DNA of 37,759 nucleotides, from the NCBI GenBank assembly GCA_043817715.1, contig JBDRGO010000043.1:1-37759 (forward strand), read 5' to 3'. Positions 13,527 through 33,588 of the stretch are shown piece by piece; positions within the stretch are counted from its first letter, which is position 1; each line of letters begins with the position of its first letter. The DNA is from Candidatus Iainarchaeum sp. (GTDB lineage Archaea > Iainarchaeota > Iainarchaeia > Iainarchaeales > JAFGBZ01). The notes below the pieces were generated by a model, which saw nothing but the letters and a program-made list of their open reading frames with translations, was not told the DNA's origin and did no database searches. A program made the translations under genes and the position numbers.

Positions 13527-14081
13527 TTATTTTACAATATAATCATTTGAAATTTTTCTTTTTTCAATGTTTCCGCATTCAACGCATTTAAGCGTTTTTT
13601 CCTCAAGCTTTAACGGCGAACGGCATTTAATGCAGTACGCCTTGACAACGCCAAGAAATGGCTCTTTAATTGACAAGTCAATTCCCTGCCTGCTTACCTC
13701 AACCACTTTTGCCTTAACATAATCCCCTAATCTTGCAACATCCTTCAATGAATCAACAAATGAATTGCTTACCTCAAAAATAAACAATGCTGCAGAACCC
13801 TGGACTGAAATTTTTTTTCCGTCTTTTTCTGCCTGAAACAAATGCAGAATAAGCATTTTTTCCTTTGCCATCATTACCCTGCCGAAAACAATCGCGCCCT
13901 TGTTTAATGAAATTTTTGAATTATTCCTTGAAACAATCACTTTTTTCTCTTTTAAATCAACCTGCTTTTCGCCTACAAGAAAGCTGTTAATGTTTCCTTT
14001 TTCATCAACAAAAACATTTTCATCAGGAAGGAATTCCTCTTCAGTGCATAAAAAAGAGCCTGGAAAAACTATTTCACCCAA
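13527..14081 (-). CDS. csl4: exosome complex RNA-binding subunit Csl4
   Basis: 184 aa. An S1-like central domain plus a C-terminal zinc ribbon CIKCRSP...CVECG. Confidence 0.8.
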   Translation of the reverse strand: MGEIVFPGSFLCTEEEFLPDENVFVDEKGNINSFLVGEKQVDLKEKKVIVSRNNSKISLNKGAIVFGRVMMAKEKMLILHLFQAEKDGKKISVQGSAALFIFEVSNSFVDSLKDVARLGDYVKAKVVEVSRQGIDLSIKEPFLGVVKAYCIKCRSPLKLEEKTLKCVECGNIEKRKISNDYIVK

Positions 14082-14193
14082 AATTAATTCACCTAAAAAA
14101 AAGAGTTTACTGCAATTCTCTTTTCAACTTATATACTTAAAACTTAAGGAAATATATTTAAACCATGTTGACGCTTTCTTAAAGGGGAGTAAA

Positions 14194-16205: not shown

Positions 16206-17447
16206 ATGAAGGAAAAAAATGTATTGGTTCTGGCAATTGACAGGGACAATGATTTAGGGCATAAAACAGGCATTGCCGGACCGGTAATAGGAAGAAAAGA
16301 AAACTTAAAGGCAGCTGCAAAGCTGGCGTTATCTGACCCTTCAGAAAGCGATGCAAACTGCATGTTCGGCGCAGTAAAGAAATTCGAGGAACTGAAAACC
16401 GAATTCTCCAATGTAGAAATTGCAACATTAACAGGCCATTCCAAGGAAGGATTTGAATCAGACAAAAAAATCAATGAACAACTGGATGCAGTAATGGAAA
16501 AATTCCATGCAGAAGCATTTGTTCTGGTTACTGACGGAGGAGAAGATGACCAAACAATCCCGATTCTTCAGTCAAGAGCGCCGATTATTTCAAAGGAATT
16601 AATTATTGTCAAGCAGGCAAAAGAAGTTGAATCAATTTATTTCACAATAATAAATGCATTAAAGGAGCCAAGCATTAAAAGAATTGTTTTCCTGATTCCG
16701 GGAATAATTGTTTTATTGTATGGAGTATTGTTTTTTCTTGGCTCGGAAAAATTATTTCTGCAAATCATCAGTTTAGTTATAGGAATTTATTTAATTCTGA
16801 AAGGAACAGGGCTTGAAGAAATAATTGCGGAAGGAATTTCAACAATAACCAATTCAATTTCACTGCAAAGAGTAAGCTTTCCTTTTTACTTAATTACAAT
16901 TATTCTGCTGATTTTAGGAATTTATTCTTCCTGGTTTGCCTATTCAACAGGTGAAGGGACAATTTTAATGAAAGCCACAGAAATCATTAAGCAGATTCTT
17001 TTGTTCGGGGCATTAAGTGCTTTAAGCTTTGTGCTGGGCGTAAGCGTTGATTCAATTCATTTAAAGAAAGCATTTTATTTAAGGAATTATTTTTTAAGCG
17101 CAACAGCAATTGTGATTTTATGGTTTATTCTGGATTCAGCCAGGGCAGTCCTTGTAGGGGAACCGCAGGCATCACTTGAATGGCTTGTAATTAATATCAT
17201 AATTTCATTTGCTTTGGCATTAATTGCATACAGGATTTCAGGAATCCTTGATTTAAGGAAAAAAATCACCAGATTATTAATCGGACTGCCTGTTTACTCA
17301 AAAAAAGGGGAATGGCTTGGAAGGGTGACTGAAACACATAAAGAAAATAATTCAATTAAATTCAATGACACAAAATCAAAAAAAGAAATTACTTTAGAAA
17401 AAGGAAAATTCATGCTGAAAGGCGGAAGAGTATTATTAGTGGGCTAA
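16206..17447 (+). CDS. DUF373-like archaeal membrane protein
   Basis: The soluble N-domain reads [13 protein letters not shown]...[10 protein letters not shown] polytopic core follows. The C-terminal about 60 aa look PRC-barrel-like. Confidence 0.55.
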
Positions 17448-18925
17448 GCTTTCACAGCGAGTTTTTTCTTTAACTGATTGGGAACATTTACATCAACAAT
17501 TGATTTTAATTTTGCAAGCAATTTTCTGGAATCAGATGATTTGACAAAAGCATTTTCCAGAACTTCACTTAAAGTGCTTACAGGAATTAACTTGATTTTT
17601 TCGATTTTTTCTTTCGGCAAAATTACGTCCCCGAAATTGGATTTAGGAATAATCACTTCCTTAAATCCTGCCTTAATTGCAGCATTCACTTTTGCAGTAA
17701 CCCCTCCAACAGGCAATACTTCTCCTCTCACACTTAATGAACCAGTCATTGCAATTGATTGTTTCACAGGAATCCCTTCCAATGCACTAATTACTGCAGT
17801 AACAACTGAAACACTTGCTGAATCCCCTTCAACTCCGCTGTATGCCTGCAAAAATTGTATATGAAGATCATGTGTTGAAATGTCTTTTCCTGAAAGCTTT
17901 TTAATAATGGCTGAAACATTCTGCACTGCTTCTTTTGCAATTTCCCCTAATTTTCCTGTTGCAATAATTTTTCCTTCAGCCGATGATTGTGCAGGTGCAA
18001 CTTCTGCTTCAATAGGCATAATTAATCCTGCATCTCCGTCTCCTGAAACAGCCAAGCCATTAACCCTACCAATTGCATTTCCTTCAAATAAAAAAACTTC
18101 ATATTCTTTTCTTTCAGTTAAATACTGATCAACCATCTGCTGTTCAAGGGTTTTAGCCGACATTTTTGCCTGAAATACATCATCTGCCTCAACTAATTGC
18201 TTTCCTTTTTCCCTTGCAACATCCCCTGCAGCCCTTATTAATCCGCCAAGGTCCCTTAATTTTAAAGTTAATTTGTTTTTTTTACCTGCCCTTCTTTTTG
18301 CCTCAAAAATTATTTCCTGAACTGCTTCAAAAGAAAAATCAGGAATTTTTGTGTCTTTTTTCACTTCCTGCGCAACAAACTGCACTAATTTATTTCTGTT
18401 TTCAACTGAATCCTCCATTTCAAGATTCATATATAATTCATAACCATAACCCCTGATTCTGCTTCTTAATGCAGGATGCACTTTATCCAAATCCTGGTAA
18501 TTTCCCGCAGCAACCAAAACAAAATCACATGGAACTGCATCAGTTCTAGTCATTGCACCGCTTGACATTTCGCTTTGCCCGGTAATTGAATATTTTTTTT
18601 CCTGCATTGCAGTCAATAATTCCTGCTGTGATTTAGGAGTTAAAGTAGCAATTTCATCAATAAATAAAACCCCGCCATTAGAACGATGAATATAACCAGG
18701 CTCAACACGCAAATGAGGAGGAGTTCCTAAACCGCCTGAATTTGAAACCAAAACATCTTCAACAAACAAATTCCCTGTTTCAGTTGTGACGTTATATACG
18801 TGACCTTTGAATGGTTTGGATTCCTTTGAAGAAATTTTTGCATTTTTTGTTTTTAGTTCTTGCATACAACAATTTTCTTCAAAAACCATTAAATATTTAG
18901 CGTTGGAACAGAATTCACTCTGCAA
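17444..18925 (-). CDS. lonB: LonB protease C-terminal fragment: C-terminal intein half (18740-18925) plus C-extein (17447-18739)
   Basis: [22 protein letters not shown]|[15 protein letters not shown]... is followed by the rest of the AAA+ module and the Lon protease domain ([23 protein letters not shown]). The track start is a TTG with a stop 2 codons upstream. ATGs occur at codons 13 and 21. Confidence 0.85.
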
Positions 18926-19024
18926 TAACTAAATTTATTGAGAATAAGATTAAACGGAAAAAGAGATAGAAATAAACTACAAGAAAAGTTAATGCAATAA
19001 ACAAAAGTATTTTTATTTTTGCAC

Positions 19025-20092
19025 TCAATTTCTTTCACCTTTTAATTCATCCAAACATTTCTTTATTTCTCCATCAAATTTTTGTTTTTTTTCAACACAG
19101 TATTTTAATGGAAAAAGTTTGTGGAATTTTTGGACATTCTTACTGTTGCCTCTGAAAAAAATTCTGTAACCTAAACTCTTTTTTCTATCTTTTCGTCTGC
19201 TGTTTTTATAATTCTGAACTCCAATAAAACCAGTGCATTGAATTCCGAGTTTTTCCATATGATTCATTATCCCTGTTAAAAATTCTTTATGAGAAAATTC
19301 TAATTTATTATGTTTTGATAAACTAAATGAAAAATTCTTGAAATGACTTTTTCCATATTTTGTTGAAACAAACCTAGGAATAGAAACTTCAGCAGCAAAT
19401 AACCCATCAAAAAAAGCCAAAATAAGTTTTTTGCTAAGTGATTCAAATTTTTTAGGAAAAGAATAAAGAACAATTACTTTATCTCCAACTGGAACTCCTA
19501 AAACAACAAAAAACCTAATTACTGCTCGGTCACAAGTTCTTATACAAAAAGCATGACCATATTCACCAACATGAATTAAACTCAGTTTATCTTTAATAAA
19601 AGGAAAAACTTTTACAAAATCATTTTCCCATAAATCAATGTTTTCTTTGACTGAAGAAATAAAAGATAAAGTATTTAAATTTCTGTCAACACACCCATCA
19701 CCATAAATCATTCCAAGCATTCTAAAAACATCTTCAGCATGTTTATGATTTGAAGTAAAAGGCAATAATTCATATTTCTTCAATTTCTCAACTGTTTTCA
19801 AAGCTAAAGGAACTGCTTTTTTTTCTCCTTTAGTATGCCGCCATCTTGTTCTGCCTTGTGGAACACCCAATATTTTAGCACATCTTTTATAACCAAAAGA
19901 AGGATTTTCCTTCATTAATTTCAAGTATTCAGCGTATTTTTTGCATGAGAATTGCTCATCCTTTGAATAAGTATCAATTATATCCTGCTCAGAAACCAAA
20001 ATCATTGTATCTTTATGAAATTGGGTTTTTTGGTTTTTAAAGGATTTGGAAGAGTAGACTTCCGGTGCCAATTTTAAATAATTATTTTTCAT
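19025..20092 (-). CDS. free-standing LAGLIDADG homing endonuclease (double motif) with an N-terminal HTH-like region
   Basis: 355 aa. Motifs LGMIYGDG and LAFFDGLFAAE lie about 100 aa apart. GGAGGTG SD lies 6 nt before the ATG. An in-frame stop sits 20 codons upstream. Confidence 0.8.
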   Translation of the reverse strand: MKNNYLKLAPEVYSSKSFKNQKTQFHKDTMILVSEQDIIDTYSKDEQFSCKKYAEYLKLMKENPSFGYKRCAKILGVPQGRTRWRHTKGEKKAVPLALKTVEKLKKYELLPFTSNHKHAEDVFRMLGMIYGDGCVDRNLNTLSFISSVKENIDLWENDFVKVFPFIKDKLSLIHVGEYGHAFCIRTCDRAVIRFFVVLGVPVGDKVIVLYSFPKKFESLSKKLILAFFDGLFAAEVSIPRFVSTKYGKSHFKNFSFSLSKHNKLEFSHKEFLTGIMNHMEKLGIQCTGFIGVQNYKNSRRKDRKKSLGYRIFFRGNSKNVQKFHKLFPLKYCVEKKQKFDGEIKKCLDELKGERN

Positions 20093-20211
20093 TCCGAACC
20101 ACCTCCAAAAAGAATGAATTTTTTCATGGAACGGTTCAGAATTTTGGCAGTATTAAATCCTTTCGGAGTAAAACGGAGAAAGGTTTAAACTGACAAAATT
20201 CAAGTGTAATT

Positions 20212-20261
20212 ATTTCAATTTCGAAGAAATTGAAATATTTAAAGAACTCAAGTTCTTTAAA
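20212..20261. repeat. two adjacent perfect palindromes in the IntN-endonuclease spacer
   Basis: ATTTCAATTTC-GAA-GAAATTGAAAT at 20212-20236. TTTAAAGAACT-CA-AGTTCTTTAAA at 20238-20261. Confidence 0.9.
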
Positions 20262-20297
20262 TGAAAAAATTCTAAATTGGAGGGGGTGAGGAAAAAA

Positions 20298-21305
20298 TTA
20301 TTTATCTAAAAGAATCAAGTTATCGCTTTCGGAAACATCTTTTGCTTCTTTTTTATTTGGATTGCCAATAACTTTATGCTCAGGCGTAACCGCAATTTCT
20401 TTTCCATTAACATTTAAATGAATCAAGTCTCCATCAAATGGACGTCTATTCAAAGAAAGAATTCTTGAAAGAACTGGTTTATCTTCTTTATAACCAATAG
20501 TATAAATTTTTTCTTCATCTGGAAGCAGTATTGCTTCATAGCCTTTTTCGTTTCTGATAACTTCTTTTCCGTACTTTTCATACATTTCACTCCAAAGCTG
20601 CGGAAAAGGTTTTTTCTCAAATTCAAGTTCATTTTGACCTTCTTTTTGTAAATAAAGCTCTGAGAAGCCAAAACTTTGTAACGGATCATGTCTAACGTCC
20701 CCGAGTAATGCTCCTGCTCTTGCTCCTGTTGCTTCAATGAATGAAGCCATTTTTTTTTCTGAATTATCAATTAATAATTTTGGGGTAGGGTTTCCTGATT
20801 TCATTTTCATTTGGCTTCCTAAAGCAAATGCAATAAATAAAAAACCACCTAAAATCAAAGTTGCTGCATAAACTACATCAGGAATTAAATTCAAATAACT
20901 CCATAAAATAAATGAAATTAAAAAAAAACCTAATGAAAGAATCATTGAAAGTAATCTTGCATTGTCTTCTAATGCTTTTGAATCCAAATTTGCTTTTTCC
21001 ATTATTTTTTTTCCTTCCCCTGCTTTAACTGTAACAATTTTTGGATTATTTGAATCTTTTTCATTCGGATAAACCAATACATCAACCAGCTTGGATACAG
21101 GCATTATTTCAGCCATTGCTGCCGCAAGCATTGATTTCCCTGTGCCTGGAATTCCGACCAATAAAACATTTCTTTTTTGCGCAGCTGCTTTCTTAATTAT
21201 TTCAACTGATTTTTCCTGCCCGATTACCTGCCCAACCATTTTCTTCGGGACAGAAATTTCTTTAGTTGAAGTGAACTTCAATTCAACTGGTTTTTCTTCT
21301 TCCAT
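20298..21305 (-). CDS. lonB: LonB protease N-terminal fragment: N-extein (20676-21305) plus N-terminal intein half (20301-20675)
   Basis: Walker A GIPGTGKS, two TM helices, and GDVRHDPLQ. Then S-FGFSELYL (block A-like) and IAVTPEHKV (block B TxxH), with a stop after 125 intein residues. Confidence 0.85.
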   Translation of the reverse strand: MEEEKPVELKFTSTKEISVPKKMVGQVIGQEKSVEIIKKAAAQKRNVLLVGIPGTGKSMLAAAMAEIMPVSKLVDVLVYPNEKDSNNPKIVTVKAGEGKKIMEKANLDSKALEDNARLLSMILSLGFFLISFILWSYLNLIPDVVYAATLILGGFLFIAFALGSQMKMKSGNPTPKLLIDNSEKKMASFIEATGARAGALLGDVRHDPLQSFGFSELYLQKEGQNELEFEKKPFPQLWSEMYEKYGKEVIRNEKGYEAILLPDEEKIYTIGYKEDKPVLSRILSLNRRPFDGDLIHLNVNGKEIAVTPEHKVIGNPNKKEAKDVSESDNLILLDK

Positions 21306-22267: not shown

Positions 22268-22960
22268 ATGCAAACACTTCTTCTGGCCGCAGGGAAAGGA
22301 ACTCGAATGCTTCCATTAACTAAATCAATTCCTAAATGCTTAATTGAATTAAATGGAAAGCCTTTGATTGAATGGATTTTATTGGAATTAAAGAAAGCAA
22401 ATGTAATGGAATGCTTTATTGTTGTTTCATATAAAAAAGAAAAAGTGAAAGAATTCCTTGGAAATGAATTTAAAGGAATTAAAATCAATTATATTTTACA
22501 GCCAAAACCATTAGGCACAGGGGATGCAGTGAAAAAAGCAAAAGGAAAAATGAAAAAGCATTTTTTGTGTTTGAATGCAGATACTTTATTTAAAGCAGGA
22601 TTAATTAGAAGAATTTTAAGGCAGAATTTGGCCGATGCATTAATTGTTGCAAGGGAAGAAAAGCATCCGGAAAATTTCGGAGTATTGAAAACAGAAAAAA
22701 ACAAGGTTTTGGAAATAATTGAAAAACCAAAGAATCCTGAAAGCAATTTAGTTAATGCAGGAATTTATTTATTTTCAGAAAAAATATTTGATGCTCTTTC
22801 AAAAGTAAAGAAATCCAAAAGAGGAGAAATTGAATTAATTGCAGGAATAAATAAGCTGATTTCACAGGGAAATAAAACTGAATTCATTGAAAGCACTTCA
22901 ATAATTTATGATATTGGCTCAATAGAGGATTTAAGGAAAGCGGAAAAAGAACTTAGATGA
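22268..22960 (+). CDS. sugar-phosphate nucleotidyltransferase
   Basis: 230 aa with LLAAGKGTRMLPLT and GTGDA. The ATG directly follows the rnz stop. Confidence 0.75.
   Translation: MQTLLLAAGKGTRMLPLTKSIPKCLIELNGKPLIEWILLELKKANVMECFIVVSYKKEKVKEFLGNEFKGIKINYILQPKPLGTGDAVKKAKGKMKKHFLCLNADTLFKAGLIRRILRQNLADALIVAREEKHPENFGVLKTEKNKVLEIIEKPKNPESNLVNAGIYLFSEKIFDALSKVKKSKRGEIELIAGINKLISQGNKTEFIESTSIIYDIGSIEDLRKAEKELR
22903..22951. repeat. 49-bp direct repeat, copy 1 (inside the 3' end of the nucleotidyltransferase gene)
   Basis: Identical to 23013-23061. Confidence 0.95.
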
Positions 22961-28438: not shown

Positions 28439-29875
28439 TCAGAATAATTTCATCTGCTTTGTTTTTGGCTCTGATTTAATTTTTTCTTCAGATTCTTTCT
28501 CTTCAGATTCCTCTTCTTGCGGTTTTTCTTTTTCAACCAGTTCCTCTGCAATTCTTTTTCCGCCGAAAGTTTTAATTACTCTTGAGCTTTTTTCAGCCAA
28601 TTGCTTTTTCCTTAATTCATTTGCCTCATCAAAAATTGATTTGACTTTTTTTGTTTCAGGCTTTGAATCCATTAAATAAGCGATTTCTTTTTCATTTAAG
28701 TCAAATTCTGAAGCAAAATTAACTGCTTTTTCCTTGTCTGCAAAAATTATTTTAATGAATTTCAAATCCTGTGAAATCACTTTTCGAGAGCTGGAATTCA
28801 TTTTTTCCCCAAATTTTTTTGCAATTGCTTTCTTGAAAGCCCTTTGGCTTGTGGAACGCGACAGCCTTGAAATCAATGAAGGAAACTGATAAGGTACAAA
28901 TGAATTATATTCATTTTTTTTGCTTAAAGCAACTCCCTCAGTTGCCAGATCCATTGTATATTTCAGCAGGGAATAATCCTGCGCAATGTAAATCCTTCCA
29001 TGAAAAATGTCTGCCCTGGACAAATAATTAAATGCCTCGGCACAATCTTCAGGAACAGTATACTGCCTTGGAATGTTTTCCTCAATCCATGCAAGCAATA
29101 AATCAAAATTCAAATCACTTGCAAACCTTGCCTCGCGGATTTTAGTGAAATCAGTTCCCTTGAAAATTTCCTTCATTACTGCAAAAATTTTCTGCTGGCG
29201 GTCCCTTTCCCCCAAGGAATTCACAACATCAAAATCAATTTTTTTTTCAAAAGAAAGCGACTGCAAATCCAGCAATGCACTGCGGAAATCCCCGTTGGAA
29301 TTTTTTGCCAGTTCTTTTACTGCCTCTTCCTCAAAAGCAATTCCTTCTTTTATGCATAATGCGTTTAATCTTGAAGCAATTGATAAATAATTGATTTTCT
29401 TGAATTCAAGTGTTTTTGAAGCCAAACGAATCCCCTGAAATTTTTTGTCCCCATAAATTTCATTTGCAGTTAAAACCATTGGATTCTGTGAATTTCCTAA
29501 AAGCGAGGCAATTGCCTGCGCTCCGCCTTTGTCATTTTTATGCAGTCCGTCAATTTCATCCAAAAGAATCAGCCTTTTTTTCCCTGAAAAAGAAGTATTT
29601 TGGCAGGCTGCTGCAACAATTTTTTCAATCACTTCTTTTGAGCGGAAATCACTTGCATTCAATTCAAATAAATCCCATTTCATTAATTTGGCAATTAAAT
29701 AAGCCAGAGTGGTTTTGCCGGTTCCTGTACTGCCCCATAAAAGCAAAGGGATTTGCGGTTTTCCCTGCTCCCATGCCAAAGCCCATGATTTTACCTGAGA
29801 AACAATGTCAGAATTTCCAACAAAATCCTCAAAGGATTTAGGAAAGTATTTTTCAGTCCATAACTGCTTAGGCAT
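28439..29875 (-). CDS. rfcL: replication factor C large subunit
   Basis: WTEKYFPKSFEDFVGN, Walker A GSTGTGKTT, LLDEIDG, and an acidic/lysine-rich tail. Confidence 0.9.
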   Translation of the reverse strand: MPKQLWTEKYFPKSFEDFVGNSDIVSQVKSWALAWEQGKPQIPLLLWGSTGTGKTTLAYLIAKLMKWDLFELNASDFRSKEVIEKIVAAACQNTSFSGKKRLILLDEIDGLHKNDKGGAQAIASLLGNSQNPMVLTANEIYGDKKFQGIRLASKTLEFKKINYLSIASRLNALCIKEGIAFEEEAVKELAKNSNGDFRSALLDLQSLSFEKKIDFDVVNSLGERDRQQKIFAVMKEIFKGTDFTKIREARFASDLNFDLLLAWIEENIPRQYTVPEDCAEAFNYLSRADIFHGRIYIAQDYSLLKYTMDLATEGVALSKKNEYNSFVPYQFPSLISRLSRSTSQRAFKKAIAKKFGEKMNSSSRKVISQDLKFIKIIFADKEKAVNFASEFDLNEKEIAYLMDSKPETKKVKSIFDEANELRKKQLAEKSSRVIKTFGGKRIAEELVEKEKPQEEESEEKESEEKIKSEPKTKQMKLF

Positions 29876-29909
29876 AAAGAATAAAAGAAATGAAGGAATT
29901 AAATAATAT
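29827..29909. repeat. 83-bp direct repeat, copy 1 (rfcL codons 1-16 plus the 5' end of the divergent small gene)
   Basis: 82/83 identical to 30355-30437. Confidence 0.95.
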
Positions 29910-30326
29910 GTGGAAAAAGCAATGCATGCAAAATGTAGGAAATGTGCTCAGGGACCTAAAAAAAATTCAAAAATATTTTGCCCGCAAGAATACCAAAAAA
30001 GAGAGAAAGAAGGCGAAGGATGTGAGCATTATTTATGTGACAAAGCAGAAGGGCTTTTTTTAGGCATTTTAAACAGAAAAAAACATGAAATGAAAAAAAT
30101 TAAAATTATCCTGTCTAACGGAAAACCCCCTATTGAAACTAATGCAATTACTGCCCCACATGAAAAAAAATGGGCTATAGTTAAAATCCAAACCCCTGAA
30201 GGGAAAATGCTGCATTTCGCAACTTATTCAGAAAAAAAGAAAACCTGGTTTCTTAACAGAATAACTCCACTTAATTGGAGTAAAGAAGCCAAAGAATATT
30301 TCCAGAAAAATTTCCCGGAATTCTGA
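29910..30326 (+). CDS. Cys-rich small protein, paralog A
   Basis: CxxC-x11-CP-x13-CxHYxC, then WAIVKI...FAT...LNR. The track start is a GTG, with an ATG at 29922. The conserved ATG at 29890 is out of frame. Confidence 0.55.
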   Translation: MEKAMHAKCRKCAQGPKKNSKIFCPQEYQKREKEGEGCEHYLCDKAEGLFLGILNRKKHEMKKIKIILSNGKPPIETNAITAPHEKKWAIVKIQTPEGKMLHFATYSEKKKTWFLNRITPLNWSKEAKEYFQKNFPEF

Positions 30327-30354
30327 ATAAATAGCTTTGAATTAAATTGAATAC

Positions 30355-30403
30355 CCTCAAAGGATTTAGGAAAGTATTTTTCAGTCCATAACTGCTTAGG
30401 CAT
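30355..30403 (-). pseudogene. orphan duplicate of the first 16 codons of rfcL
   Basis: The minus strand reads ATG CCT AAG CAG TTA TGG ACT GAA AAA TAC TTT CCT AAA TCC TTT GAG, identical to the start of rfcL, and then diverges. Confidence 0.7.
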
Positions 30404-30437
30404 AAAGAATAAAAGAAATGAAGGAATTAAATAGTAT
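30355..30437. repeat. 83-bp direct repeat, copy 2
   Basis: 82/83 identical to 29827-29909, with one mismatch at 29906/30434. Confidence 0.95.
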
Positions 30438-30828
30438 TATGGGAAAACCTAAAAATCATTGCACTAGCTGTTGGTATACTACAAAAAACAAACCCTGTCC
30501 AAAAAAACCAATTCCTGAAGATATGACCTACAGACCGCACACATACTGTAAACATTACATGTGCGAGGATGGAGAATTTCAAGCAGGTTATTACCTCGAA
30601 AATAATCCTAAAAAAGCTGAAAATATTTTATTAATAAATGAAAAACAAAAAGAAACAAAAGAAAAGGCAATAGTTTTTCCAGTAATAAAGAAAAAAAAAG
30701 CCGCAATAGTAAAAATTGAAGAAAAATTTTATTTTGCAACACCAATTGAAGAAAATAAGTATCACCTCAATAGAGAAGCAAAATTTAATGCAAGGCAACT
30801 TAGAATAATAGAGGAATGTTATTCTTAA
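30418..30828 (+). CDS. Cys-rich small protein, paralog B
   Basis: CxxC-x8-CP-x16-CxHYxC, then AAIVKI...FAT...LNR. The ATG lies inside repeat copy 2 and is in frame. Confidence 0.6.
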   Translation: MKELNSIMGKPKNHCTSCWYTTKNKPCPKKPIPEDMTYRPHTYCKHYMCEDGEFQAGYYLENNPKKAENILLINEKQKETKEKAIVFPVIKKKKAAIVKIEEKFYFATPIEENKYHLNREAKFNARQLRIIEECYS

Positions 30829-30882
30829 TTGAAGCCACCTAAATTTAAAACTCTTTCCTTAAAGAAATTAATTTGATTCAAA

Positions 30883-32076
30883 ATGCTCATAGGATTAGTT
30901 GGAAAGCCTTCTTCAGGGAAAAGTACTTTTTTTAATGCATGCACTTTAATGAATGTTCCAATGGCTTCTCATCCATTTACTACAATTAAACCAAATCACG
31001 GAATAGGATTTGTTAGGGTTGACTGTGTTGATAAAGAATTTGGAATTCAATGCACTCCACGAACAGGTTACTGTAAAAACGGAACAAGATTTGTTCCAGT
31101 TGAATTAATTGATGTTGCTGGATTAGTTCCAGGCGCAAGTGAAGGAAAAGGAATGGGAAACCAATTCTTAACTGATTTATCCCGAGCAGATTTATTAATT
31201 CATGTTGTAGACGCAAGCGGAAGTGCAAATGAAAAAGGAGAAATTGTTGAAGAAGGAACATATAATCCAATAAATGATGTGAAGTTTTTAGAAAAAGAAA
31301 TTGATGCATGGTTTTCAGGAATTGTTAAAAAAAATTTAGGAAAAAGCACAAGAATACCAACTGAATCAAAAACAAAATTAATTGAATTGATTTCACAGAA
31401 TTTAAGCGGAATAGGGGCAAAACAGGAAAACATTGAAAAAACAATTAATGAACTGAAATTAGGGGAAAAAAAATTAAACCAGTGGACTGAAGAAGATATT
31501 GAAGATTTTTCAAAAACTTTAAGAAGAAATTCTTTGCCGATAATTATTGCAGCAAACAAATGCGATAAAGGAAAGGCAAAAGAAAACATCGAGGAAATGA
31601 AAAAAGAATTCCCTGAAACACTGATTGTTCCATGCAGTGCAATTGCGGAGCTGGCATTAAAAAAAGCAGCAAAAGACGAAGCAATTGATTATTCTCCTGG
31701 AGCAAATGAATTCAAGGAATTAAAGGAATTAAATGAAGAGCAAAGAAAAGGACTGGATTATATTAAGGAAAATGTCCTGCAAAAATTCGGCTCAACAGGA
31801 GTGCAGGAATTGTTGGACAAAGCAGTATTTGAATTTCTTAATTATATTGCGGTTTTTCCCGGAGGGACAAAAGGATTCATTGACTCGCAGGGGCGCATTA
31901 TGCCTGACTGCCTGCTGCTAAAAAACCATTCAACTGCACTGGATTTCGCATTCAAGCTCCACACAGACATGGGCAAAGGATTCATTAAGGCAATAAATGT
32001 AAGGACAAGGCAGGCAGTAGGAAGAGAGCATGAATTAAAAAACAGGGACGTAATAGAAATAGTTTTTAAGGCGTGA
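30883..32076 (+). CDS. OBG-family GTPase with a C-terminal TGS-like domain (YchF/Ygr210-like)
   Basis: G1 [10 protein letters not shown]2 PFTT, G3 DVAGLV, G4 NKCD. Confidence 0.8.
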
Positions 32077-33227: not shown

Positions 33228-33330
33228 CCAAAAAAAGGAATAAGCAAAACGCTAATTAATCTTTACCATAAAACCTAATGAATTGGAAACCAATAAAAAC
33301 CGTTAATCCACTATAATTATACAGTGAACA

Positions 33331-33588
33331 ATGATGGATTCCAAGACAGATTCATGGTTTGAGAAATTAATGAATTGGATTTCAACAAACTTAAAATTAT
33401 TTGCTGCAATGCTTTTCCTGATTTTTTCAGTCGGAATGATTTACGGGGTTTTTGTGCTACATTTTGTAAAAGAATTCCAGATGCTTTATTTTGCAGCCCC
33501 CCCGGTAATGGGAATAATTTCCTACTACAACAGGGATGTTGCGCTTATAATGCTTGTAATATTCATAGCTTTCTTTATAATTCTTTAA
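33331..33588 (+). CDS. small membrane protein (two or three TM segments)
   Basis: 85-aa hydrophobic ORF directly upstream of the ArsR-like gene. Confidence 0.45.
   Translation: MMDSKTDSWFEKLMNWISTNLKLFAAMLFLIFSVGMIYGVFVLHFVKEFQMLYFAAPPVMGIISYYNRDVALIMLVIFIAFFIIL

Follow-up and report, generated by a model that had tools for sequence, protein, structure and literature searches.

An 83-nucleotide repeat carrying the rfcL 5' end and a putative divergent promoter heads an old pair of Cys-rich orphan paralogs in Candidatus Iainarchaeum

This report deals with two small Cys-rich genes, here termed A and B, and with the near-identical repeat that heads each of them in Candidatus Iainarchaeum sp. 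(GCA_043817715.1, contig JBDRGO010000043.1, forward strand); the whole stretch of DNA analysed, 37,759 nucleotides (nt), is called the window. A repeat search of the window finds a direct repeat of 88 nt with 97% identity (29822-29909 and 30350-30437), whose core, 29827-29909 and 30355-30437, is identical at 82 of 83 positions with a spacing of 528 bp, just as an earlier note on this DNA had described it. The sole mismatch between the core copies is an A at 29906 versus a G at 30434. In each copy 49 nt are minus-strand 5' coding sequence of rfcL, the gene of the large subunit of replication factor C, i.e. 16 codons plus one nucleotide, and the other 34 nt are the sequence upstream of it, a putative bidirectional core-promoter spacer. 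Copy 1 contains the true start of rfcL (28439-29875, minus strand, 478 codons, with the Pfam domains AAA, RFC lid and Rad17), and copy 2 holds the same start as an orphan fragment, both in line with the earlier description: a minus-strand open reading frame (ORF) of 59 codons (rfcL', 30224-30403) reads MPKQLWTEKYFPKSFE and then runs on into sequence unrelated to rfcL. This fragment has its own copy of the putative promoter and lies antisense to the 3' end of gene A. Just downstream of its start, at 30209-30320 on the minus strand, three terminator-like hairpins with T-runs are found, where 1.2 would be expected, and these could act as a stop for a transcript from the second promoter copy.

Gene A (29922-30326, plus strand) encodes a basic, Cys-rich protein of 134 amino acids (aa), which is also the length of the database gene call, and would extend to 138 aa (29910-30326) if GTG 29910 served as alternative start. 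Gene B (30439-30828, plus strand) encodes 129 aa when read from Met8, the start that we prefer, and 136 aa when read from ATG 30418 (30418-30828), as in the database gene call; it is likewise basic and Cys-rich. On the plus strand both repeat copies carry an ATG (29890 and 30418) followed by MKELN, which is in frame with B and which, in front of A, opens an out-of-frame ORF of 57 codons (29890-30063), so that the frames are as the earlier note gave them. A second ATG inside this ORF, at 29908, is also out of frame with A and straddles the end of the repeat, a small correction to that note; the 57-codon ORF is probably not a gene, its frame lacking the Cys motifs. Beyond B follows the gene of an Obg-like GTPase (YGR210 type by Pfam; 30883-32076, plus strand), apparently the ancestral divergent partner of rfcL, from which it is now 1007 bp away. 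Counted from the first base of copy 2 to the last one ahead of the GTPase ATG (30355-30882), the second unit measures exactly 528 nt and equals the repeat spacing, despite indels in the gene bodies (motif offsets of 526, 526, 529 and 515) and 3' flanks of unequal length (28 versus 54 nt); this agreement is probably a coincidence. Explanations of the repeat as an RNA were dropped, as it has no Rfam match near any gathering score and its folding is not below that of shuffled sequences (z-scores of +0.12 and +1.29).

A and B are true paralogs. Their global BLOSUM62 alignment scores 78 compared with 23.4 ± 7.7 in 1000 shuffles (z=7.1), their local alignment gives z=8.5, and in a phmmer search with A against all 341 ORFs of the window B is the only significant non-self match (E=1.3e-4, 16.5 bits), scores by which the kinship assumed in the earlier note holds. 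By BLASTP alone the relationship is weak (E=0.005 over 44 residues), amino-acid identity being ~33%, and several indels separate the two bodies. The architecture described for the 138-aa and 136-aa ORFs is present in both, i.e. they have in common the motifs CxxC, CxHYxC, AIVKI, FAT and LNR, with order and spacing confirmed: CxxC and CxHYxC each lie at a DNA offset of 526 between the genes, and the 26-residue spacing of the two motifs is identical in A and B. A frame that stays open over 135 codons would arise by chance with p = 7.5e-6 in the A-rich DNA of the window, and the frames of A and B contain only their own stop, versus 2-15 stops in the other five frames (in gene A, 1 in-frame stop versus 3-15 in the other frames). 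Nucleotide identity between A and B at codon positions 1, 2 and 3 amounts to 0.50, 0.59 and 0.43, respectively, as compared with 0.31 for random sequence, and this order, position 2 > 1 > 3, indicates purifying selection at the protein level. Two weak A/B-like matches elsewhere in the window, 22268-22957 and 13530-14123, were rejected as chance; the former lies inside an ORF that Pfam assigns to the nucleotidyl transferases.

The paralogs are also old. At 36 aligned positions A and B have the identical residue, and the same codon is used in 22 of these, close to the 20.1 that would be expected under genome codon usage with synonymous sites randomised; the bodies are thus saturated. The head has a single mismatch in 83 nt, and the module is therefore far younger than the genes that it precedes, i.e. 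it must have been copied again long after the bodies had diverged. Selection may hold a promoter constant, but it gives no reason why all 49 coding nucleotides of the orphan fragment should be identical, which is why re-copying is required. The earlier note had seen the contrast between the near-identical head and the diverged bodies and had offered gene conversion, cassette-like replacement or fast diversification of the coding part to account for it. The contrast and the first two options stand, whereas the third fails on the codon count, because saturated synonymous sites exclude a recent duplication of the whole unit followed by fast diversification or hypermutation. It is true that targeted hypermutation, of the kind caused by diversity-generating retroelements, or very fast positive selection after such a duplication would match the abrupt switch from identity to divergence at the repeat end, and that the single repeat mismatch is A versus G. 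However, the synonymous sites at conserved residues are randomised, the order of the codon positions speaks for long purifying selection, the bodies differ by several indels, and the repeat spans the putative promoter and the rfcL 5' end rather than a variable coding region. Moreover, a scan of the larger window ORFs brought up no reverse transcriptase, and a diversity-generating retroelement was rejected as the identity of the locus on these grounds; hypermutation as an explanation is effectively refuted by the synonymous-site saturation.

The surroundings of rfcL in related archaea show what the interval looks like in other lineages. The closest database relatives of RfcL are annotated as replication factor C large subunit of Candidatus Diapherotrites (DPANN) and are 61-66% identical. 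In a comparison set of nine related rfcL loci from genome and metagenome collections, rfcL and the gene of the Obg-like GTPase are directly divergent in five of the nine lineages and lie 42-86 nt apart, as compared with 1007 nt in the window: the ATG-to-ATG spacers measure 42 nt in L010, 53 nt in L013 and 46 nt in L014, and those of the less closely related L006 and L005 are 68 and 86 nt long. The three closest loci (L010/L011, L013 and L014/L015) have also kept the gene order, namely PheRS-alpha, PheRS-beta, rfcL, GTPase, orc1/cdc6, a small membrane protein and a helix-turn-helix protein; a fourth close locus, L012, stops just upstream of rfcL. No A/B-like ORF was found in any of the nine rfcL loci. 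As rfcL and the GTPase gene stand head to head in the relatives, A and B together represent a lineage-specific insertion of ~1 kb into their presumed bidirectional promoter region. The spacer itself appears to be under unusually strong constraint: it is identical at 43 of 43 positions between L012:116-158 and L014:3958-4000, even though the RfcL proteins are only 74% identical and the first rfcL codons differ. Beyond these 43 nt, at its contig end, L012 encodes no GTPase, and this lineage may also have been rearranged at the point upstream of rfcL.

Insertions at this place are not confined to the window. Three other lineages have ~0.8-1.1 kb in the same interval and in each case a different, unrelated gene: a gene with an NYN domain in L003 (interval of 828 nt), a glucosaminidase-like gene in L004 (1071 nt) and an ORF without assigned family in L008 (1042 nt). 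In L003, the RfcL of which is 50% identical, the NYN gene lies between 28-nt direct repeats of the spacer (L003:3163-3190 and L003:3929-3956), one copy by the GTPase ATG and the other by the rfcL ATG, which are identical at 24 of 28 positions and contain an exact core of 16 nt. Judged by these repeats, duplication of the spacer around an insert at the rfcL/GTPase slot has occurred in at least two independent events, one in L003 and one in the window.

The layout of the spacer suggests what the repeated 34 nt may do. Two AT-rich boxes are found in each of the 42-, 46- and 53-nt spacers of the closest relatives, and likewise in the repeat. One TATA-like box of the window, AAAGAATAAAAG (29876-29887, plus strand), adjoins the rfcL ATG and is the predicted element for gene A; it matches the GTPase-facing box of the relatives, whose spacers have an AT-rich box beside the rfcL ATG (AATAAAGCATAAAAAA in L010), ~28 nt from the GTPase ATG. 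The other box, GAATTAAATAAT on the plus strand or ATTATTTAATTC when read on the minus strand, to which it is assigned (29896-29907), has its centre ~26 nt away from the start of rfcL, where L010, L013 and L014 likewise show a TTAAATAA-like box, and is the predicted element for rfcL. The repeat ends within three bases of this distal box. We infer that each module is a complete bidirectional archaeal core promoter, and the earlier proposal that the repeat holds a promoter is borne out in so far as its 34-nt part has the same two-box layout as the 42-53-nt spacer of the relatives. To call this promoter embedded in the rfcL coding region, as was done earlier, is misleading, since the rfcL codons seem to have been carried along in the duplication.

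The usual distance between an archaeal TATA box and the start is ~26 nt. Starting from a TATA centre at ~29881, plus-strand transcripts would begin near 29908 and 30436, i.e. the box beside the rfcL ATG would fire rightwards and give rise to leaderless or near-leaderless mRNAs. From these, translation would begin at ATG 30439 (Met8, MGKPKNHCTSC...) in B and at ATG 29922 or GTG 29910 in A. The distance of ATG 30439 to the ATG of the orphan rfcL fragment is 35 nt, and that of ATG 29922 to the ATG of rfcL itself is 46 nt; in the closest relatives the GTPase starts are 42-53 nt away. Both genes would then be co-regulated with rfcL, and if the rfcL-side promoter and the start codon of the second module are live, antisense transcription into the 3' end of A would result. 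As to translation starts in the window in general, a Shine-Dalgarno motif of the GGTGA type is located 7-12 nt before many of them (e.g. 2745, 10588, 12400, 26748 and 35182), whereas in front of rfcL and of the starts at 537, 3981 and 34373 the GGTGA motif is missing and a TATA-like box is found instead, at about -25 to -33; the genome thus seems to mix leadered and leaderless genes.

The earlier note had taken the repeat not only as promoter but also as the 5' coding end of the gene family, with ATG 29890/30418 as the real start, MKELN(S/N)I as conserved N-terminus, the promoter inside the rfcL coding sequence and A frameshifted at its 5' end. In its favour, the B ORF has its first ATG at 30418, where the 136-aa database gene call also starts, one extra base would make A read MKELNNIVEKAMHAKC, resembling MKELNSIMGKPKNHC in B, and a weak T-rich element, GTATTTTT (29846-29853), is located upstream within rfcL. 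The ATG in question, however, lies between the two TATA-like boxes, and only 14 nt separate it from the ATG of rfcL, while the divergent gene of the relatives starts 42-86 nt away, or 42-53 nt in the closest ones, and no relative with directly adjacent genes has an ATG at the matching position. Furthermore, it is out of frame in A and is not preceded by a GGTGA-type ribosome-binding site such as many window genes possess. We therefore consider this version of the 5' end unlikely and MKELN probably untranslated, in which case the frame conflict in copy A disappears.

Taken together, we favour, with a probability of roughly 0.6, a course of events in which an insertion into the divergent promoter was followed by an old duplication to A and B and a later intragenomic re-copying of the module. 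First, a gene for a small, basic, possibly zinc-binding protein would have been inserted between the spacer and the GTPase gene, taking over the GTPase-side promoter. Long ago this gene would have been duplicated, giving rise to the paralogs A and B. Much later the 83-nt module, i.e. the 16 rfcL codons plus one nucleotide and the complete 34-nt spacer, would have been re-copied in front of B, either by a gene conversion in which one tandem unit received the 5' module of the other, or by a short secondary duplication directly before B. Homologous recombination is reported to shape a Diapherotrites population (PMC5905446).

The flanks of the repeat bear on the route of this re-copying. To the left of the repeat, 30 nt are 47% identical at the same offset (~97th percentile of the background) and identity is 33% over 60 nt; a local alignment leftward of the repeat into rfcL yielded no significant homology. 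With copy 2 deleted in silico, what then precedes B (GAATAAATAGCTTTGAATTAAATTGAATAC joined to TATGGGAAAA) weakly aligns to the spacer before A with a score of 26, which was reached in 30 of 5000 shuffles but in 288 of 5000 random genomic segments. This is suggestive of an older, decayed spacer copy beside a freshly inserted module, the candidate being the 3' flank of A (30327-30354, GAATAAATAGCTTTGAATTAAATTGAATAC). The 9-mer GAATTAAAT, common to the repeat and this flank, occurs 12 times in the window and was hence set aside as not decisive. A third decayed copy of the module before the GTPase gene and homology between the ends of the two 528-nt units were also looked for and were not significant (218, 532 and 596 of 2000 shuffles).

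The same flanks enter into the main rival, a cassette-like recent insertion, in which one paralog, most simply A with its 28-nt 3' flank (29910-30354), arrived from a related strain or another locus with duplication of an 83-nt target or stretch of homology. Direct repeats exactly flank this 445-bp segment of one gene, the left repeat edge is sharp, the sequence upstream of B is still spacer-like once copy 2 is taken out, and the slot is a recurrent one in related lineages, the insert in L003 also being flanked by a duplicated spacer. The repeat copies, with 1 difference in 83, also fall into the range by which strains differ in the reads (2 in 185 and 4 in 178). Against this, the scan of the larger window ORFs revealed no integrase, transposase or reverse transcriptase, terminal inverted repeats are absent, and the databases searched contain neither a donor nor a further member of the family. 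The donor would, moreover, have had to combine an rfcL 5' end that is 99% identical with a gene copy that is saturated in divergence, and no reads with a single-gene allele were found, although coverage is too low for this to count. Such an arrival is in our view unlikely, even if the present data do not separate it from intragenomic re-copying. A bolder version would make the rfcL/GTPase promoter of Diapherotrites-like archaea a dedicated gene-capture slot, where a recombinase-independent or an unknown site-specific process duplicates the module (28 nt in L003, 83 nt here) and so ties the promoter of the newcomer to replication genes; A and B would then be two captures from a fast-evolving, mobile zinc-knuckle family and not an old duplication in place. 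We mention it as a long shot.

All of this presupposes that the tandem arrangement is real. The contig is from a metagenome and is the sole carrier of A and B, and the repeat is short enough to mislead assemblers that use small k, so the 528-bp tandem might be imagined as two strain variants of a locus with one gene, joined into a chimera. Parts of the region are present at ~2-4x in three public metagenomic runs, one from biofilm and two from groundwater; no RNA run with sequence of the region was found among the public runs. In run X2 a unitig of 185 nt covers 30240-30424 and so connects the 3' end of A, over the junction 30354/30355, with the first 70 nt of copy 2; it shows two A>G differences, two single-base changes by which it comes from a slightly different strain. 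The junction thus exists in the reads of an independent data set. A unitig of 214 nt from run X3 matches gene B exactly (30455-30668). No reads with at least 92% likeness cover 29880-29945 in the three runs at their ~2-4x, and no single-copy alleles were found in the reads, the coverage being too low for inference of copy number. Since the junction needs real reads, ordinary 150-nt reads span an 83-nt repeat, and an allele bubble would not yield an orphan rfcL fragment, an assembly artefact is very improbable.

The proteins themselves have no relatives that we could find. Only A and B themselves were recovered when 5.8 billion protein clusters were queried by two word-indexed searches and 1.84 billion representatives by a full HMMER profile search; there was no significant match among Pfam, PHROGs, PADLOC or NCBIfam profiles or PDB sequences, and viral contigs matched neither the A/B protein profile nor a 39-nt stretch of the repeat. 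The earlier note had named an absence of homologs elsewhere as a reason to abandon its view, and on the searches by sequence, profile and structure this absence is what was found. Relatives as diverged as A is from B would be invisible in such databases, however, because the mutual score of the two is only 16.5 bits, and A and B are still credible as genes, since the two ORFs support each other and the junction is seen in an independent run.

Both proteins are basic (isoelectric points of 9.6 for A and 9.1 for B), have 5-6 Cys residues and contain the ligand pairs of a Cys4 site, CxxC and CxHYxC (Cx4C), 26 residues apart. Zinc binding is thus plausible from the sequence, although no zinc-finger or zinc-ribbon profile or structure matched significantly (best in Pfam zf-C3HC4_2, E=2.2). 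AlphaFold predicts a C-terminal alpha/beta domain of ~85 aa, composed of a helix, five strands and a helix, at a predicted local distance difference test score (pLDDT) of 80-87 in B and ~61-79 in A; the two models have the same C-terminal topology but are not independent, because one alignment of two sequences underlies both. In Foldseek searches no significant neighbour was found for either model in the PDB (best E=0.45-0.5) or for the B model among viral models (best E=0.07). Residues ~50-136 of B (30565-30825) superimpose on an uncharacterised 83-aa protein of an uncultured tailed phage, A0A6J5LAE0, over 81 columns with a template modelling (TM) score of 0.59 normalised to the target, a root-mean-square deviation of 2.6 and a Foldseek probability of 0.93 (but E=0.33), a weak hint that the C-terminal domain of B might have a fold like that of small phage proteins. 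RelE/HigB-like toxins, the B3 domain and aRDF were rejected, the Foldseek matches being at noise level only (E >= 0.45 for RelE/HigB), and so was a toxin-antitoxin or defence pair, as A and B are paralogs of each other and PADLOC gives no match. From motif, charge and context we tentatively propose, at somewhat less than even odds, that A and B are small zinc-knuckle nucleic-acid-binding proteins expressed together with replication genes.

The lack of homologs, the start-codon and frame problem of A at its predicted start site, the tolerance of the slot for arbitrary inserts in other lineages and the structural comparison of the C-terminal domain, in which small uncharacterised proteins of phages come closest though without significance, would also suit a less constructive view, namely that A and/or B are decaying, non-functional leftovers of DNA that was inserted and may be viral, and that the repeat arose as a neutral side effect when the locus was rearranged. 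Yet both ORFs are open over ~130 codons, which has the chance probability given above, the coding pattern is preserved, the Cys ligands and three motifs have been kept despite saturated synonymous sites, and the predicted C-terminal fold is a confident one. We regard decay as distinctly unlikely.

Several points weigh against the insertion, old duplication and later re-copying that we favour. Conversion usually overwrites homologous sequence, whereas the repeat breaks off sharply on its left side, with no convincing older homology beyond, and the spacer-like sequence before B fits the insertion of a new module better than conversion. The use of the promoters and the start codons is predicted from geometry, and the out-of-frame ATG 29908, which straddles the repeat boundary, coincides with the predicted leaderless position of A; A may thus be poorly translated, or newly frameshifted or damaged at this boundary. 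The locus is present on one contig only, and the read support for the junction consists of one low-depth unitig. As to function, the N-terminal Cys region is modelled with a pLDDT below 50 (residues 1-44 of A and 1-48 of B), and because homologs and profile or structural matches are lacking the proposed role is without comparative support.

Several known systems share features with the locus, which nevertheless belongs to none of the families tested. Bidirectional promoters of Pyrococcus furiosus, whose start sites are separated by ~49 bp, were demonstrated by in vitro work (PMC6640164), and with these archaeal promoters the locus has in common head-to-head genes ~45-50 bp apart, TATA box and B recognition element (BRE) in a short AT-rich spacer and a leaderless-type spacing of ~26 nt, a pattern matched by the rfcL/GTPase pair of the relatives. 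In contrast to them, the module is present twice together with 16 codons of one partner, the GTPase gene is displaced by 1 kb, and the promoter is here predicted from sequence. In the ospE/ospF-related (erp) genes of Borrelia, an 'upstream homology box' is reported to head diverged paralogs (PMC7002432, citing Marconi et al. 1996), and in both cases a near-identical promoter/5' region in front of diverged paralogs implies upstream recombination or conversion and common regulation. The erp genes encode surface lipoproteins on multiple prophage plasmids, whereas here we find two chromosomal tandem copies, a putative archaeal promoter and the 5' end of an essential gene, i.e. the likeness is one of pattern and not of homology.

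Integration of mobile elements with att repeats offers a further parallel, for direct repeats with the end of a host gene flank an insert and leave the host gene intact: the 83-nt direct repeats enclose 29910-30354, as the 28-nt spacer repeat encloses the NYN gene of L003. Here, however, the insert is a single gene of 445 bp, and the target is the 5' end of a protein gene with its promoter and not a tRNA gene. An integrative element or transposon was rejected, as Pfam showed no recombinase or transposase domain in the larger window ORFs scanned and no inverted repeats bound the segment, and a duplication of 83 nt is far longer than the target duplications made by transposases. At the protein level, the CxxC and Cx4C pairs at conserved distance in a short basic protein resemble small archaeal zinc-ribbon or zinc-knuckle (Cys4) proteins, which differ from A and B in that the latter have no zinc-finger profile match, a Cys region modelled with low confidence and an ~85-aa alpha/beta domain without significant structural neighbour. 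Thus, upstream boxes that head diverged paralogs, bidirectional archaeal promoters and target duplication at insertion sites are already known in kind; new here is that a putative promoter module has been duplicated together with the beginning of an essential gene, in a slot where insertions recur, and that it stands in front of a pair of orphan paralogs.

The rest of the window is an ordinary archaeal chromosome with genes for PCNA, LonB, ThiI, RNase Z, PheRS, RFC, Orc1/Cdc6, a P-type ATPase and others. Two side observations may be added. The gene of the LonB-like protease appears to be split (17444-21305, minus strand) into a part with Lon_C, the LonB lid and a partial AAA domain (17444-18925) and a part with only the N-terminal, Walker-A/Mg-chelatase-like AAA portion (20298-21305), which are separated by an ORF of 355 aa without Pfam match (19025-20092). 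Beside orc1/cdc6 a direct repeat of 22 nt (TAATGAATTGGA..CAA.AAA; 33276-33297 and 33368-33389) is identical at 18 of 22 positions, with 0.11 expected by chance, and overlaps the start of an ORF for a membrane protein of 85 aa (33331-33588) that is conserved in relatives; it may be an element resembling an origin recognition box or a coincidence of coding sequence.

For annotation the locus holds three warnings: gene B probably does not begin at its first ATG, the 59-codon ORF rfcL' represents a fragment, and the absence of homologs means little where A and B barely detect each other (16.5 bits). Beyond this, an orphan protein family is added that has a confidently predicted but unmatched alpha/beta domain, and attention is drawn to a recurrent insertion slot beside replication genes in DPANN archaea. 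Current understanding is not overturned by these findings; their value is illustrative, and they will not surprise the specialist. If the proposed course of events is true, however, the locus would be a compact natural case of how a new gene gains expression in a streamlined archaeal genome: the newcomer would enter a shared promoter and take one of its sides, and later copies of the module would keep both the paralogs and the displaced housekeeping gene expressed.

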